This document shows positions 40,829 through 56,496 of a DNA stretch of 64,000 nt, one piece after another (the first letter of the stretch is position 1; each line of letters begins with the position of its first letter). The notes beneath the pieces are model-generated. The model saw only the letters and a program-made list of their open reading frames with translations. It had not been told where the DNA came from and did not search any database. Source of the stretch: an uncultured virus (IMG/VR IMGVR_UViG_2721755777_000003) (lineage: Duplodnaviria; Heunggongvirae; Uroviricota; Caudoviricetes); the IMG/VR virus record IMGVR_UViG_2721755777_000003, positions 1 to 64,000 of that record; one strand, 5' to 3'. Made by a program: the position numbers and the translations under genes.

Positions 40829-42571
40829 TTAGACCACAATATCTCCTTCTGCAGTCTTCAGTGTTCCACTGTCATATGTGTTATAAATTAAGGTTGTATT
40901 CTTTGCTTTATCTGTGCAATATGGGTGGGATAAAAACTTGCCACCAATTCCGCGCACATCGTTTCTTACGAGACGTACCTTGTTTGTATTCTCCAAATAA
41001 ACACCATATCCTTGGTCTGCTGCACGATTGAACATGATCTCATTATCCTTTAATATATGTTCTGAACCGCCAGTCAGTTGGATGGCGATTAATGATTTAC
41101 AGAAATAAACCTGATTCTCACTAATCTGGCAACTGTATTTCTCAGGGGTGCCTTTAATTGCAACATTCCTAGGCTCATGAATTTCATTTCGATGCAGTGA
41201 GACAGAAGAGTCTTTATCCCAAAAGATGCCGTATCCACTCCCACTTAACAACAAGTCATTTCCCTTTAAACGAACTGACTGAGACCTTTCGCAATAAATT
41301 CCACCATATACATTAGCAAACTCATTATTAACGAGACTGATTCGGGTAGAGTCCATTATCTTTGCAGCATAAGACGAGCTCGTTCCTTTTCCTTTGGTAT
41401 TCACAACCTTAATATCATTTGAGTTTCTAACCTGGACTTGAACACAATCACTGTTTTCTATCCTGTTGTCCGTAATTAAAAAGTCCTCTGCTTGATGTGT
41501 TGCAATAGGGCATGCTTTTATTTTTTCAAAAGTATTATTTGATACTGTGCCACCCTTTCCTCTTACACAAATGCCCACTTCAAAGCCACTAATCGTATTG
41601 CCATCAATTTGAACTCTGTTTCCAGACTCAGTACTTGAAACACCTACCGAGTCAATTCCATAAGTCTTAATTTCATTTTCATTGATGATCTTGTTATTTT
41701 TGATACTGACATCCGTGCTATATCCATAGGAAATAACATGGTCGCTGTAGTTTCCTTCAATAATTACCTTGCCGCTTGTGTGAGCTGTAACAGATCCACG
41801 TCCATTGTTTTTAAATCTGCAGTTTCGCACAGTTAATTTATACGGGTGATCGTATTTAATTCCGTTTTCTCCAAAGCCCTCTAAATCAATTCCTAATTGT
41901 GGCCCAATTGTATCTCCTCCAGCTTCCTCTATATCACAGTCATCGACAAGAAGACCTTCACAACCATTGGTAGCCAGATTATTTCTTCTTCCTCTTAAAA
42001 GCGTACACTTTCGAACGGTTACATTCTTTGAAGGCGTATATGTTCCTGAAGTGTTCATCATTCCATCAGCCGCTATCCAAATGTTGTCTCCAATACAGTC
42101 AGAAACTTGTACATTTTCAATTAGCACATTGCTACTTCCATTAACATGGATACCAAAGCCCCATTCATGCGTCTTCTTAATTGAGGTAATTTTTGAATAA
42201 TCATGCTCATGTCGATCCCCAATAATTTGACCGCCACGAATCGTAACATTACTTGCTTGGCCGATATAAAAACAGGAGTAACCCTGATAATCATTTGGCT
42301 GCACTTTAAATATAGCCTCTGGATGAAGTATTAGCTCAATATTCGAAGGAACATTGATACCTCCACCGAATTCAGGTAACCGCTTTGACGTATTCACTGC
42401 ATCAATTAGGTAGATACCTTTTGGAACATATACTTTATAGAATGATTTTGAGCATGCATACTCTAAAGCTCGGTTTAATCCTTCTGTTGTTTCAATTGCA
42501 TTTGACCCTTTATCATCAATTCCCCAATCCAGAGCATCAACAAAATAGTATAAGGGCTGTTGCATGTTCAT
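40829..42571 (-). CDS. yorA: Right-handed beta-helix (pectate lyase-like) protein
   Basis: VYVPKGIY N-terminal motif; repeated PbH1-like units. Confidence 0.85.
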   Translation of the reverse strand: MNMQQPLYYFVDALDWGIDDKGSNAIETTEGLNRALEYACSKSFYKVYVPKGIYLIDAVNTSKRLPEFGGGINVPSNIELILHPEAIFKVQPNDYQGYSCFYIGQASNVTIRGGQIIGDRHEHDYSKITSIKKTHEWGFGIHVNGSSNVLIENVQVSDCIGDNIWIAADGMMNTSGTYTPSKNVTVRKCTLLRGRRNNLATNGCEGLLVDDCDIEEAGGDTIGPQLGIDLEGFGENGIKYDHPYKLTVRNCRFKNNGRGSVTAHTSGKVIIEGNYSDHVISYGYSTDVSIKNNKIINENEIKTYGIDSVGVSSTESGNRVQIDGNTISGFEVGICVRGKGGTVSNNTFEKIKACPIATHQAEDFLITDNRIENSDCVQVQVRNSNDIKVVNTKGKGTSSSYAAKIMDSTRISLVNNEFANVYGGIYCERSQSVRLKGNDLLLSGSGYGIFWDKDSSVSLHRNEIHEPRNVAIKGTPEKYSCQISENQVYFCKSLIAIQLTGGSEHILKDNEIMFNRAADQGYGVYLENTNKVRLVRNDVRGIGGKFLSHPYCTDKAKNTTLIYNTYDSGTLKTAEGDIVV

Positions 42572-43392
42572 GTTGTCAAACCCTTCCCTTCTACATTTTC
42601 ATTGAGAAACCCTGATAGAGTGTCAATGAAGTTATAAAAGGTCTCATTTCTTGTACCAGAGCGTCCTTTCAGAGAAAAGGTGTTGAACATTGATTTGCGT
42701 AGTCCAGTGCTCAATTCCAGTTGAATGCTCTTTCCTGTTTTATTTTTATTGGCCACGTTATTTGGACTGCTACCGGATAGCCTCGTTCCCTCATCTAGAA
42801 GCTCTGCAGAGTAGCCGGCATTATTTAATGTACTTGTTATCGCTTCAGCTTTGTCCCGGTCTGTGCCGCCAACTAGAACATGTTGATCATTACTTGCATA
42901 ACCGTGAAGTGACAATGTGAACTCATGCCCCTTCAACATTTCAAGTGCTTGTGGTTCATCAAAATTCGTACTGGTTAAATGCAAATCAAAGGCTCCTGGT
43001 GTCTTTAAAGCTTCAAAAAGATATGTAGAGTATGTTTCGCTTAATTCCTTTGCAAGCTCGCTTGTTCCCCCTTCTATGCCACCTCCATGGGGAGCAAGAA
43101 TTAATACATCAGTGTCTTGCTCTTTTGAGAACACGCTAAAATTGAACGGTGATTCATTCGCTTTAAGCTCTTCAAAGTTTCGATACTTGTCCGCTACTAA
43201 AATACTCACTGGATTCAGGAATGAAACCAGAGCAGTCACCAGGACTGGAAAAGTCTTCTTAACTGTGATACACTTTAATAGCTTCGTAGTGATACGATGC
43301 ATGCAGAGTTGGGGGTGCGTCCCAATGCTAACCCTCTCTGCCTCTTCAATCTTTTTTAAAAAATCCTCTATTCTGTTTTTAATCCTTAACAA
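42568..43392 (-). CDS. yoqZ: Poly-gamma-glutamate hydrolase
   Basis: APHGGGIEGGTSE, HLTSTNFDEP, SLHG, QLELS. Confidence 0.9.
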   Translation of the reverse strand: MLRIKNRIEDFLKKIEEAERVSIGTHPQLCMHRITTKLLKCITVKKTFPVLVTALVSFLNPVSILVADKYRNFEELKANESPFNFSVFSKEQDTDVLILAPHGGGIEGGTSELAKELSETYSTYLFEALKTPGAFDLHLTSTNFDEPQALEMLKGHEFTLSLHGYASNDQHVLVGGTDRDKAEAITSTLNNAGYSAELLDEGTRLSGSSPNNVANKNKTGKSIQLELSTGLRKSMFNTFSLKGRSGTRNETFYNFIDTLSGFLNENVEGKGLTT

Positions 43393-43504: not shown

Positions 43505-43648
43505 TTAAATCCAAGACACAATATTACCGCATTCTAAATGCACGTGTTCCCAATCTCCTTCCCAAGGCCCTTCTACCAAGTCAACCTCATAATCAACTTC
43601 ATCTTTTTCGATTACTTTTTCACATTCGTTGCAGAAGCAGGTAAACAT
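43505..43648 (-). CDS. 47-aa acidic Zn-ribbon microprotein; not in ORF track
   Basis: MFTCFCNECEKVIEKDEVDYEVDLVEGPWEGDWEHVHLECGNIVSWI; RBS GAGGAG. Confidence 0.7.
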   Translation of the reverse strand: MFTCFCNECEKVIEKDEVDYEVDLVEGPWEGDWEHVHLECGNIVSWI

Positions 43649-43681
43649 TTTCACTCCTCCTCTTTCTGTAAAATATCGTTT

Positions 43682-43954
43682 TTATTCAGTTTCTTTTCTT
43701 ACCCATTTTCTAACCTTCACTTCTTTTAACTCCACTTCATAACAATCCACTTGATCTTCAAATTCCCAAGGGCTTTCATACTGGTTTTCAGTTGCACCTT
43801 TGCTATAGAAAGTTTCAAAAAAGCGACCCTGATATGAGAACACAATTCTATAGTGAATGCTCCACCTAGACGTGTCAGTGATTTCTTCCAGTAGTGAAGA
43901 TTCCGGCAGCCCCAATTCATTTACCATGTAGTCTTTGTCCAATTTAATTTTCAT
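43682..43954 (-). CDS. 90-aa phage protein overlapping gad1 stop
   Basis: SRW...VF...Y..GATENQ motif; RBS GAGGAG. Confidence 0.7.
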   Translation of the reverse strand: MKIKLDKDYMVNELGLPESSLLEEITDTSRWSIHYRIVFSYQGRFFETFYSKGATENQYESPWEFEDQVDCYEVELKEVKVRKWVRKETE

Positions 43955-44834
43955 TTAAAATAACTCCTCTTCCTTTGCAGCATTTACATTCAACTAAAGG
44001 CTCGTTGATTTTAGCCATCAGATCATCTAAAAATTTCTTAATATTACTCTTTAAATCTTCAACGCCCTTTCCACTAAACGGTTCTACAATTGGGTAGCTC
44101 TGATAGGCTTTAGGTGCAACATTGTAAATTTCAACTTCCCGCTTTGTTTGAAATCTTTTCTCAAGTTTAGGCTTTCTCCGTTTGTACATTGCATTAAGAT
44201 CAACTATATACTCGTGAGGTTTGTAAAGCTCCAGAACCTTGACCACAGTTAAACAGAAATCATAATCACTCGTGATTCTTGCAAATTTAGGGTTTATATT
44301 GGCTTTTATATGGTTTCTGATAATCTTATAGCTTTCTTCTCGGGACAAGTAGCACGGCTTTGTTTCAAGAAGCATTGGATGAGTTTGAATTCTATCCAGT
44401 AAGTTATAATTCAAGTTAAAATTATGACTTTGCAGCTTAAGTTCTCCGTCAATTTCTTCAATTACATTCATTTCAAACTCAATTTTTTGATTCTCTTGCG
44501 GGATTTCTTCAAATTTTAAATCATATAGACCCTTCACTTCATAGTATTCACTGTCTTCACCTATGTAAGAAGTTTTAATTACTTGTGGCGTCAAATCAGT
44601 TTCCTGGAATCCCTCTTTTAATTCATACCTATAATTGATTTTTTTAGCCGGCATTTGTTTTTCAATAACACTTGGCTCCTTATCAAGCTTAAACCAGTCT
44701 GATTTATACGTTTGGGTTGCTCGTTTCCCATCGAAAAACAATTCATCTAATTGACTATGAAAATATTTATTTCCTTCAATATTGTCAGACACCAAAAAAC
44801 AGTTACTTGTTTTAATACCAATTAGCTTCATCAA
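43944..44834 (-). CDS. gad1: Gabija anti-defence protein Gad1-like
   Basis: Closely resembles recalled phi3T Gad1 (MKLIGIKTSNCFLVSDN..., ITSDYDFC, CKCCKGRG); about 295 aa. Confidence 0.8.
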   Translation of the reverse strand: MMKLIGIKTSNCFLVSDNIEGNKYFHSQLDELFFDGKRATQTYKSDWFKLDKEPSVIEKQMPAKKINYRYELKEGFQETDLTPQVIKTSYIGEDSEYYEVKGLYDLKFEEIPQENQKIEFEMNVIEEIDGELKLQSHNFNLNYNLLDRIQTHPMLLETKPCYLSREESYKIIRNHIKANINPKFARITSDYDFCLTVVKVLELYKPHEYIVDLNAMYKRRKPKLEKRFQTKREVEIYNVAPKAYQSYPIVEPFSGKGVEDLKSNIKKFLDDLMAKINEPLVECKCCKGRGVILNEN

Positions 44835-44911: not shown

Positions 44912-45172
44912 TCATCGTTCACTTATTTTATTTTTATCAAATAAATCAATTATGTAGGCTTCATACAGCTCATCCCAATAAGGGTCTGTTCTTGCTATGT
45001 ATTTCTTGGCTTTCCCATTTTCCTCAATCTTAAATGTTTGTCCCTTTTGGATATCCGTGAACTTCTTCTTTGTCCATATCCCTCTAATTAACACATCCAC
45101 TTCTTTAACCTCAACTGTTTGCTGCTTCATCACATTCCTCCTTTTTGATTTTCGTGTATCAAGCCTGTACAA
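44912..45172 (-). CDS. Small phage protein (YoqX position)
   Basis: Likely start after AGGAGG; synteny. Confidence 0.55.
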
Positions 45173-47352: not shown

Positions 47353-47967
47353 CTAAGCGTCTTCCTTCGGCAAATCAAATGTTAGACCGCTGGATTTTAA
47401 ATGCGTTTCTTCCTCCGTCGTAGCAACCCCGCTACTCCCGAAGCCGCCCGCCCCTCGATCGCTATCGCCGAGCGTATCAACTTCCGTAAACACCGCTTGT
47501 TCGACCGGCTTGATAACGGCTTGCGCGATGCGATCGCCTTTGCGAATTTTGCACGTATTTTCCGGAACAAACACGCTTCCATAACGATAATCGTCGAGCT
47601 CGAAATCGAAAAACTCGGCCTTTTCGGTTTCTTCCCAATATCCGTCAACTACCTTATAGAACGTAGTTTCTTCACCAATTTTCTGCGCAATATTATCGAT
47701 AATCACTCCGACCTCTCCTCGATAGCCCGCGTCAACTGTACCGAGCTGCACACGCAAAGGCGTCTTCAGCGTAATGCCGGATCGTGGTCGGATTTGCATT
47801 TCGTACCCTTCCGGAATTTCAAACGCCAAGCCCGTCGGCACACACGCAGTTTCGCCCGGTTCGATAATAACGTTCTCTGCCGCCACTAAATCGAAGCCGG
47901 CGTCTGCTGCGTGCGCATAAGCTGGGATCTGTGCGTCCGGTGATAGCCGTTTAATATTTACGTTCAT
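47353..47967 (-). CDS. dut: Second trimeric dUTPase with acidic insertion
   Basis: AGFDL, RPRSG, GTVDAGYRG, DRIAQ, RGAGGFGSSG. Confidence 0.92.
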   Translation of the reverse strand: MNVNIKRLSPDAQIPAYAHAADAGFDLVAAENVIIEPGETACVPTGLAFEIPEGYEMQIRPRSGITLKTPLRVQLGTVDAGYRGEVGVIIDNIAQKIGEETTFYKVVDGYWEETEKAEFFDFELDDYRYGSVFVPENTCKIRKGDRIAQAVIKPVEQAVFTEVDTLGDSDRGAGGFGSSGVATTEEETHLKSSGLTFDLPKEDA

Positions 47968-50218: not shown

Positions 50219-50893
50219 TCATCCAGGCGTATAGCTTATATCCAATTCAAATTCGCATTTCGGATGCAACCTCCAAATTTGATGTCCTAAGTATGTTTTC
50301 CTAGCGTAATTCAGACAGTTCCTTGTCCCACTTATACTTCCGTCATAAACAGCTACTATTGCTTCACTGTGATCAATCATATATTCATTTCGTTTTTGCA
50401 TTTTAGCCGGCGAAAACTCTCCTAGTTTATCTCCACTAACTTTATATTTATCTAATTCTTCAACATTAATAATCTCATCTGCCACATCAAGCATACGTTT
50501 GTACCACATTTTTTGTTCTTCAGACCAAACCTTATCTTGCTCCTTGAAAGGTGTAGCAATTATGTTTTTGATATGAGGGTGTTTCTTCTTTAGAATATGT
50601 ACACACCAGCAAGCAGCCTGGTCAGTTCCTAATGCTCCACCAGTTATAAACCTGGACTTCTCTTCTTTTATGATTAACTCCTCAATCACTTCAAGCAGCT
50701 TATCTTTGAGTTTGAGCATTGTGGGATTTTTCATATCATAGCCACCCAATTTATTTGGTCTGTGACCGGTAAAACAAACTGTCTTCTTTCTCAGTTTTTC
50801 TTTTTCTTCTAAAAGCCGCTCACGTTTTTTTCTTTCATCAGCCCACTGCTTTTTCCATTCTGGATCATTGAACTTTGCAAAATCAATTGCCAT
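50219..50893 (-). CDS. yoqJ: SLOG/YspA-family protein
   Basis: CFTGHRP, TGGALGTD, RNEYMID, GT. Confidence 0.85.
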   Translation of the reverse strand: MAIDFAKFNDPEWKKQWADERKKRERLLEEKEKLRKKTVCFTGHRPNKLGGYDMKNPTMLKLKDKLLEVIEELIIKEEKSRFITGGALGTDQAACWCVHILKKKHPHIKNIIATPFKEQDKVWSEEQKMWYKRMLDVADEIINVEELDKYKVSGDKLGEFSPAKMQKRNEYMIDHSEAIVAVYDGSISGTRNCLNYARKTYLGHQIWRLHPKCEFELDISYTPG

Positions 50894-55629: not shown

Positions 55630-56202
55630 TCAATACCCCTCCTGCTGTCGCTGATGATTGACGGCGTTTTTGTCCATGTAAGCCGCTTCGATCTGTTCCG
55701 TGGTAAAATCGAGCATTACTCCCAAGCCTATGAATATTTGAAATAGAGATTCATACCTGTACCTCGCCAATGATTGCTCCGCTGGAGAATGACCTCTCGC
55801 TGCTTGTGCCATATATACGATTTCCTCAAATAATGAGGCGAATTGTTCTGTCAGATTAACTTCACAAAAGAACACTTGTAACTCTTTAGCAGAGACGATT
55901 TTATAATCAATGTGATTCCCAATGCTCAAGATAAAGTGCAGGCAGTCCACGTATTCCTCAAGAAGTGGGTTTCCGCCTCTTCTGAAAGCCCCATTAGGTG
56001 AAACTTCTAACGGATGTTTTGTTCTTGGCTCCCGTTCATTGCTCCAATGCTTAAAGCCGCGCCATTCGTTCGCACACTCGGCAAGCTCAACCTGTAGAGC
56101 AAGAATGAGGTTTGGGAGCAAGTCCTGCCCCTCAAGCCCCTTTTCTTTGATGATCCGATCATCAAGCACCTTTTGCATTTGGAACATTTTTTGTAGATTC
56201 AT
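55630..56202 (-). CDS. Dimeric all-alpha dUTPase (dUTPase_2)
   Basis: VELAECANEWRGFKHW, LEEYVDCLHFILS, YMDKNAVNHQRQ. Confidence 0.88.
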   Translation of the reverse strand: MNLQKMFQMQKVLDDRIIKEKGLEGQDLLPNLILALQVELAECANEWRGFKHWSNEREPRTKHPLEVSPNGAFRRGGNPLLEEYVDCLHFILSIGNHIDYKIVSAKELQVFFCEVNLTEQFASLFEEIVYMAQAARGHSPAEQSLARYRYESLFQIFIGLGVMLDFTTEQIEAAYMDKNAVNHQRQQEGY

Positions 56203-56496
56203 TGTTTCCGCTCCCCTATTTAAATTTGAATAAAACTTACATTTTATTTTTACTCTTAATACATTCATGCTGATTCACAACATCACGGAGTATGTATTGT
56301 ATTTCCTCTAAATTGTCTTTAACAAAATCTAGGTCTCCAATTGCCATTCTTATTTCGTTATTCTCTATGCTGCGCAATGACCTTTCACATGACGCTAAGA
56401 GCTTTGCATATTTCTTTAAAACCATGGTTCTTATTTGATTATTAGTTGGTTCATTAATCAATAATTAAAGCTATCTCCTTTCCTAATTCTAATTCG

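Follow-up and report, generated by a model that had tools for sequence, protein, structure and literature searches.

Results

Three co-oriented genes in the variable anti-Gabija locus of an SPbeta-type provirus

We analysed a 64-kb stretch of DNA (the window), which forms the first part of a 126-kb provirus record of the SPbeta type in IMG/VR (IMGVR_UViG_2721755777_000003; about 98% complete). Between positions 43505 and 44834, three closely packed, co-oriented genes lie on the minus strand: gad1, which codes for Gabija anti-defence protein 1 (Gad1), a gene for a 90-residue protein and a gene for a 47-residue protein (Table 1). The earlier note on this DNA had proposed them as a candidate anti-defence operon, in which the second product would be a possible nucleotide-signal sponge and the third a DNA mimic. 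Its observations are confirmed, including the features of the second and third products described below, and its interpretation is partly supported. What is new here concerns the second gene, which accompanies one deep clade of Gad1 as a conserved neighbour, translationally coupled to gad1 yet separable from it.

The three-gene stretch is bordered by two conserved genes, a yoqX-like gene and a poly-gamma-glutamate hydrolase gene. Over this region the closest phages are SPR, phi3T and SPbetaL1-L5, with a DNA identity of 91-95%. In the available text of their preprint, Yirmiya et al. call the same interval a dedicated anti-Gabija locus (10.1101/2023.05.01.538930), and the window interval is this known variable locus of SPbeta-like Bacillus phages and proviruses. 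In SPbetaL7 the interval holds gad2, placed after the yoqX-like gene. On provirus contig L122 a gad2 that is 94% identical to that of SPbetaL7 (554-1759) directly precedes gad1 and the 90- and 47-residue genes. The label of anti-defence hot spot is thus supported by the presence of gad2 in SPbetaL7 and by the stacking of gad2 and gad1 in L122. Gad2 (400 residues, nucleotidyltransferase-like) is an alternative occupant of the locus that is absent from the window and unrelated to all three window genes.

Table 1. Features of the locus, in coordinates of the window.
Feature	Position	Strand	Basis
gad1 (Gabija anti-defence 1), 295 aa, intact	43944..44831 from ATG	-	Pfam PF25705, PDB 8U7I
Shine-Dalgarno-like GGAAGAGGAG of the 90-aa gene	43964..43973	-	read from sequence
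90-aa acidic beta-rich protein, "Gad1-linked partner"	43682..43954	-	member of phrog_6343
Ribosome-binding site GAGGAGGAG of the 47-aa gene	43654..43662	-	5 nt before ATG
47-aa acidic CxxC...HxxC microprotein	43505..43648 from ATG	-	translation, 5 homologous clusters
yoqX-like gene, left border of the variable locus	44912..45130	-	phrog_19340, E 7.4e-45; matches yoqX of SPBc2 and phi3T_127
Poly-gamma-glutamate hydrolase gene, right border	42568..43392	-	Pfam PF05908, E 4.2e-69; same gene after the variable slot in relatives

The first gene is an intact orthologue of phi3T Gad1, the protein that the earlier note had named. Its product matches the whole of Pfam PF25705 (E 5e-150; score 499.4 bits, the curated cut-off being 27; residues 1-293 aligned to positions 1-293 of 293) and aligns over residues 1-295 with residues 1-295 of chain I of PDB 8U7I (E 1.3e-189), where phi3T Gad1 is part of a GajAB-Gad1 cryo-EM complex. 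In a tblastn comparison it was 94.9% identical to phi3T Gad1 (phi3T_128) over all 295 residues, which places the two proteins about 15 substitutions apart. The nearest alleles, at 98%, come from IMG/VR proviruses (L008-L010). The list of open reading frames (ORFs) begins the gene at TTG 44834 rather than at the ATG adopted here. The shoulder cysteines C282, C284 and C285 and the fist-interface residue Y103, which the available text of Antine et al. ties to Gad1 oligomerisation (PMC10781630), are present in the phi3T and the window proteins alike; the C-terminal end of the latter reads ...ECKCCKGRGVILNEN. Among 31 aligned Gad1 sequences, C282, C285 and Y103 are invariant. The phi3T gene also occupies the same slot between yoqX-like and poly-gamma-glutamate hydrolase genes. 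The same available text describes, for the Gad1 proteins of phi3T and Shewanella, an octameric web that wraps GajAB and blocks DNA binding and cleavage (PMC10781630). By homology, the window Gad1 should disarm the Gabija nuclease-helicase of its host in this manner, wrapping GajAB as an octamer and preventing DNA binding. The window gad1 is in this sense already explained biology and adds one more allele.

The 90-residue gene is coupled to gad1 and accompanies one deep Gad1 clade

The gene for the 90-residue protein begins at an ATG (43954) inside gad1 and overlaps the gad1 stop, as the earlier note had seen, by 11 nt; the identical overlap is annotated in phi3T, SPR and SPbetaL1. The GGAAGAGGAG run of the gene falls within the gad1 KGRG codons (G287-R288-G289-V290), 9 nt ahead of the ATG. 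The proteins that follow Gad1 in these phages (phi3T_129, spr_140 and the SPbetaL1 protein) are orthologues of the window protein, 95.8-98.6% identical over residues 1-72; all are annotated "hypothetical protein" and, like the window protein, belong to phrog_6343. A metatranscriptome contig about 93% alike spans gad1 and the 90-residue gene across their junction, and short contigs from one transcriptome run cover both genes at 95-99%. These RNA-library contigs are compatible with expression; they derive from relatives, DNA carry-over is possible, and they prove neither transcription nor a single transcript.

We then determined how regularly the two genes occur together. Among INPHARED genomes, the 14 Bacillus records that carry gad1 are the same 14 that carry the 90-residue gene, and neither gene occurs in 10 SPbeta-group records whose match is confined to the yoqX part; in all, the 90-residue protein is present in 25 INPHARED records. 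At 34 of 76 Gad1 loci the 90-residue gene begins at the end of gad1, and at the other 42 none lies within about 3 kb. Conversely, among 40 viral loci with the 90-residue protein, which were gathered with an alignment of close relatives, Gad1 is directly upstream in 32; two are cut at the contig end, and in six a different gene lies upstream. When 70 distinct Gad1 sequences were placed on a maximum-likelihood tree, they were split by one branch (Shimodaira-Hasegawa-like approximate likelihood-ratio test, SH-aLRT, support 99) into sets of 37 and 33 rows. On the first side, 35 rows have the partner gene directly downstream and two (L026 and L027) carry Gad1 without it; on the second side, which includes the Gad1 proteins of Shewanella, Vibrio and Clostridioides phages, the partner is found in none. 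In gut-phage contigs whose flanking genes change, the pairing persists even where Gad1 identity has fallen to 33-36%. On a 176-kb faecal phage contig, for example, a copy of the 90-residue gene that is 53% identical comes within 4 nt of the end of a 36%-identical Gad1. The pairing probably arose in a single old event and was retained as Gad1 diverged.

Both genes are under purifying selection, with ratios of nonsynonymous to synonymous substitution (dN/dS) of 0.05-0.25 over 15 pairs for the 90-residue gene and 0.06-0.12 for Gad1. They can nevertheless be separated. The 90-residue genes at L103 and L099 lack Gad1 and are nested among Gad1-linked ones, the former inside the gut-phage group (support 98) and the latter beside L101. 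When the window (43682-44831) is compared with L008 (3001-4147), the Gad1 proteins are 98% identical with a synonymous divergence (dS) of 0.117, whereas the 90-residue genes are 83% identical with a dS of 1.69. This disparity implies a recombination breakpoint between the two genes, one gad1 allele coexisting with two 90-residue alleles 83% identical to each other. Frameshifted copies of the 90-residue gene lie next to an intact gad1 at L021/L104 and L073. More generally, the small genes decay in some prophages (L021/L104 and L073 for the 90-residue gene, L018/L126 for the 47-residue gene) while gad1 stays intact.

Published experiments bear on the same point. According to the available text of the preprint 10.1101/2023.05.01.538930, phi3T gad1 together with only the intergenic region upstream of it sufficed to make SPbeta resistant to Gabija, and four Gad1 homologues each inhibited Gabija when expressed alone, partner-less ones included. 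The same text reports two genes that are specific to seven Gabija-resistant phages of the SPbeta group. The distribution of the 90-residue gene is the same as that of this gene pair, and it is probably the second of the two, that is, the candidate that did not inhibit Gabija in the preprint (10.1101/2023.05.01.538930).

The gene right after the experimentally used Gad1 of Shewanella phage 1/4, S14_9 (L007:4938-5261), and a gene at L060 (4071-4388) code for proteins of 106-108 residues in which HRW...YSG...W...VEVEPKEVRSIKW faintly recalls the 90-residue family. As a remote homologue S14_9 was rejected, the similarity not being significant (hmmsearch E 0.061, hhalign probability 29%), and the neighbour gene of Gad1 in the Vibrio phage showed no similarity to the 90-residue family. 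A relationship between that family and Gad1 itself was likewise discarded, there being no similarity between them.

The 90-residue protein belongs to a large phage family

The 90-residue protein contains S29-R30-W31 and G53-A-T-E-N-Q58, and Phe, Trp or Tyr make up 14 of its 90 residues, in agreement with the earlier note. It matches phrog_6343 with E 1.5e-28 (residues 4-89 aligned to positions 18-108 of a 109-position profile), and had no match in Pfam (E<=0.1), NCBIfam or PADLOC. A word-indexed search returned 33 homologues. Among 1.84 billion representatives, a profile search returned 1,646 representative clusters at E<=0.001, 600 of them at E<=1e-10. The clusters span phages of Firmicutes, Actinobacteria and Proteobacteria. 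Each of 50 diverse relatives that we tested was assigned to phrog_6343, and no meaningful Pfam family was matched by any of them. Nine positions are conserved in at least 90% of these 50 members (R30, W31, F39, Y50, G53, T55, E56, Q58 and V74); the SRW...GATENQ motif of the earlier note is thus the signature of the family. Longer or fused members carried no informative partner domain (25 compared with Pfam, 20 with PHROGs). phrog_6343 is one of the larger phage protein families without a known function. Searching the literature by phi3T_129, phi3T_130, phrog_6343 and APD21272 yielded no paper on the 90-residue protein, nor is it mentioned in the available text of the Gad1 literature and of a review of November 2026.

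An AlphaFold2 model of the protein was of high quality (predicted local distance difference test score, pLDDT, 93.1; predicted template modelling score, pTM, 0.76) and gave the order beta-alpha-beta-beta-beta-beta. Foldseek found no PDB match to this model at E<=0.001, and the best result of a wide structural search (VIA), an unrelated 56-residue chain with Z 5.0, was within noise. Fold matches in BFVD were solely to uncharacterised proteins of phages (Streptomyces, Aeromonas, Lactobacillus, Gordonia, Mycobacterium and other phages). When a profile of the 50 members was compared with all PDB sequences, there were no matches at E<=1, and the single protein gave chance-level matches only. In the ESM Atlas the protein fell among "hypothetical protein" clusters, and 11% of one cluster pointed weakly to PF26835 (Phage_T4_Y04K); a literature look-up of this T4 nrdC.8/Y04K lead was fruitless.

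These comparisons also bear on the suggestion of the earlier note that the protein is an oligomeric sponge for the nucleotide signals of Thoeris or of the cyclic-oligonucleotide-based antiphage signalling system (CBASS). The 90-residue protein resembles Tad1, Tad2, Acb2, Acb4, Sequestin and Lockin in being small, in the spread of its family over phages of many host phyla and in its place in an anti-defence locus, and its conserved Arg, Trp, Tyr, Thr, Glu and Gln could line a nucleobase pocket. However, no sequence, profile or fold similarity to any of these sponges was detected. The solved sponges (Tad1, Tad2, Acb2 and others) were compared via PDB sequence and fold searches, in which a fold may have been missed, Tad3-Tad8 via the PDB sequence search only, and Lockin by its description. 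Sequestin corresponds to PF21825 in the available text of the preprint 10.1101/2025.07.12.664507, and this family was matched neither by the 90-residue protein (E<=0.1) nor by the 50 family members (E<=0.01). Lockin is described there as a hexameric cog built from curved, beta-rich protomers, with positive pockets between the subunits, and is reported to be absent from INPHARED complete genomes (10.1101/2025.07.12.664507), whereas the 90-residue protein is present in INPHARED as stated above. Sponge pockets in general are described in that text as strongly positive (10.1101/2025.07.12.664507). In contrast, all 107 normal-length phrog_6343 representatives are acidic (median isoelectric point, pI, 4.61) and the family has one conserved Arg. 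A known sponge domain was found in none of the 25 longer members. A sponge identity for the 90-residue protein would thus be a guess that nothing yet supports.

The 47-residue gene moves independently within a hypervariable slot

The third gene is absent from the list of ORFs, as the earlier note had remarked, and its translation has the features then described: C6-x2-C9 and H37-x2-C40, with 13 Asp or Glu residues and 2 Lys (pI 4.05). GTG at 43654 is an alternative start, which would give 49 residues. The ribosome-binding site ahead of the ATG (GAGGAGGAG) is a strong one. Homologues of the protein form five clusters and occur on 11 viral contigs. Six sequences show no variation at C6, C9, H37 and C40, and a copy that is only 51% identical keeps all four. 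The protein probably folds as a Cys2-His-Cys knuckle pair, a zinc knuckle or zinc ribbon. It has no Pfam or PHROG family, matched only generic small zinc-protein families in the ESM Atlas, and as a profile gave PDB matches at chance level; longer forms were not found, and INPHARED complete phage genomes contained none (best tblastn E 0.8). Its close copies differ by too few substitutions for dN/dS. In L018/L126 the gene is dispensable, given a stop at W33.

DNA mimics of the Ocr or ArdA kind copy the DNA backbone with acidic residues arrayed on their surface, and their scaffold is usually elongated or dimeric. The 47-residue protein is more probably a small, compact protein with Cys/His knuckles, and its acidic composition is its sole DNA-mimic trait, which makes a DNA-mimic role for it a guess.

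Whether the 47-residue gene belongs with the other two can be judged from 12 loci that contain it. Four have gad1 and its partner upstream and eight lack gad1; in these eight a YopX-family gene lies upstream instead, often together with a 48-residue acidic protein of the phi3T type. At one of the gad1-less loci (L120) the gene is 100% identical to that of the window, and a metatranscriptome contig that is identical across the 47-residue gene has nothing at least 90% alike at the gad1 position. The gene therefore assorts independently of gad1. Of the three-gene operon put forward in the earlier note, the part that stands is the joint travel of gad1 and the 90-residue gene; the 47-residue gene does not belong to the unit.

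The slot that it fills, between the 90-residue gene and the poly-gamma-glutamate hydrolase gene (window 43649-43681), is hypervariable among proviruses that are otherwise about 90-98% identical (L001-L025). The region upstream of the 47-residue gene is conserved in the window, L011, L019 and L022. Elsewhere the slot holds phi3T_130 and phi3T_131, proteins of 69-80 residues, YopX genes or, in SPbetaL1, nothing. The phi3T_130 and phi3T_131 proteins of phi3T and SPR occupy the same position behind the 90-residue gene and are of similar size (48-49 residues) and acidity (pI 4.4-4.9), but they lack the Cys/His motif and have no sequence similarity to the 47-residue protein; they also co-occur with the 47-residue gene in loci without gad1. 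One locus from an assembly titled Streptomyces sp. (L131) contains an SPbeta-like block of a yoqX-like gene, a phi3T_130-type gene, a YopX gene and a 47-residue gene 85% identical to ours. The block has the same layout in the Bacillus provirus L129, and the Streptomyces contig may therefore be contaminating or mislabelled.

Surroundings of the locus

Some SPbeta-like proviruses stack both anti-Gabija genes, gad2 and gad1, in one locus. Besides L122, whose Gad2 had no match in the Pfam copy searched, L123 has an apparently near-identical ORF at the position of the L122 gad2 (490-1761). At the window locus we found no Rfam RNA, convincing terminator or notable promoter, and no structured RNA after the 47-residue gene (z-score 0.29). 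The next 12 kb of the window contain genes for an SRAP protein, a DNA ligase, two dUTPases, a YpsA SLOG-family protein and YopX. The YpsA SLOG-family gene and the two differing dUTPase-type genes (PF00692 and PF08761) of this early region (50219-50893, 47353-47967 and 55630-56268, all on the minus strand) stand amid many unassigned small ORFs. No further anti-defence gene was recognisable by Pfam in the window between 45 and 57 kb, and the phi3T counter-defence gene nip has no homologue within the window.

Discussion

The reading that best accommodates these results, and which we favour tentatively, is that the 90-residue protein is an autonomous small binder that serves counter-defence and is carried with gad1. 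The two genes would constitute an old, translationally coupled module throughout one deep Gad1 clade, in which Gad1 takes care of Gabija; the 90-residue protein would neither be required for Gad1 action nor itself inhibit Gabija. As a small acidic protein it would bind, through its conserved R30-W31 / Y50 / G53-x-T55-E56-x-Q58 patch, a second host factor, which the linkage and the locus suggest is probably another immune component met in the same hosts. The 47-residue gene, by this account, would be an independently shuffling acidic Cys2-His-Cys microprotein, probably zinc-binding, and one of several fillers of its slot.

Several points weigh against this reading. What suggests an anti-defence role for the 90- and 47-residue genes is their neighbourhood only, and both genes are dispensable in some prophages, as their broken copies attest (L021/L104 and L073; L018/L126). 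The presence or absence of the partner requires just two changes on the Gad1 tree, such that all pairing may trace to one ancestral event and its retention could be passive inheritance of an operon. phrog_6343, with its 1,646 clusters, far exceeds the Gad1 family, and most of its members lie amid unannotated genes in unrelated phages; the general role of the family need not be immune evasion. An aromatic and polar, pocket-like motif with a spread across phyla would suit a binder of small ligands equally. Finally, the equation of the non-inhibiting candidate of the preprint with the 90-residue gene is an inference from distribution.

A different explanation, unlikely in our estimate although it deserves attention, is that the small genes have no relation to immunity and are ordinary early "moron" or host-takeover genes, with effects on, for example, replication, transcription or metabolism, whose position by gad1 in a recombination-prone region is fortuitous. 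The mosaic nature of the region would fit, since the slot is also filled by YopX-family and other unrelated genes, as would the window neighbours, which serve replication, repair and nucleotide metabolism (SRAP, DNA ligase, two dUTPases, YopX), and the broken copies of the small genes. In T4-like Aeromonas phages and in Clostridium phages, phrog_6343 genes stand amid unannotated genes with no defence context, the contexts of distant members having been sampled through four phage records. Three observations count against such passengers: gad1 and its partner retained together down to 33-36% Gad1 identity while the surroundings change, a partner present in exactly the Gabija-resistant phages of the SPbeta group, and an interval that hosts gad1 and gad2, stacked in some relatives.

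A broader version of the counter-defence idea seems to us rather improbable. It holds that phrog_6343 as a whole is a new, widespread counter-defence family, whose RW / Y / GxTExQ site binds an immune signal or a conserved host immune protein, and which in one Gad1 clade has been kept in the operon because it covers a gap that Gad1 leaves. Such a gap might consist in another defence found together with Gabija, or else in the host response to, or the toxicity of, the Gad1-blocked Gabija complex.

We consider it quite doubtful that the 90-residue protein is an accessory of Gad1, binding Gad1 or the Gad1-GajAB complex, for example so that Gad1 stays soluble until it reaches GajAB, so that more Gabija variants are inhibited or so that the toxicity of phi3T Gad1 co-expressed with Gabija is damped. 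The overlap of start and stop and the position of the ribosome-binding site of the partner inside the gad1 coding sequence, the same in phi3T, SPR and SPbetaL1, speak for such a pair, as does the retention of the partner in 35 of the 37 rows of the deep clade. The available texts of 10.1101/2023.05.01.538930 and PMC10781630 also indicate that phi3T Gad1, from the clade with the partner, is toxic together with Gabija, whereas Shewanella Gad1, from the other clade, is not. Shewanella phage 1/4 has a 108-residue gene after Gad1 with a faintly similar C-terminal strand, but this similarity is not significant. Against an accessory, gad1 alone with its promoter was sufficient in SPbeta (10.1101/2023.05.01.538930, available text), and the complex seen by cryo-EM is made up of Gad1 and GajAB only (PMC10781630, available text). 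Moreover, either gene is found without the other inside the clade, the alleles of the two recombine freely, and most phrog_6343 members reside in phages that have no Gad1 nearby.

Least probable of all is the three-system counter-immunity cassette of Gad1, a Thoeris/CBASS nucleotide sponge and a DNA mimic, given the acidic, sponge-unlike 90-residue family and a 47-residue protein that is not linked to gad1.

The association with gad1 provides the first functional lead for phrog_6343: the gene has long been kept in a tight operon with a gene whose product is proven to inhibit an immune system, at a locus that exchanges and stacks anti-Gabija genes. For the mining of such loci it matters that what looks like a three-gene cassette is a mosaic of a module, gad1 with its partner, and a shuffled microgene. 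Testing the lead offered by the 90-residue protein would be inexpensive in B. subtilis, using phi3T or SPbeta. A lack of anti-defence activity would be a useful caution on guilt by association near anti-defence genes; if the protein does act against host defence, well over a thousand gene clusters would be annotated at once.

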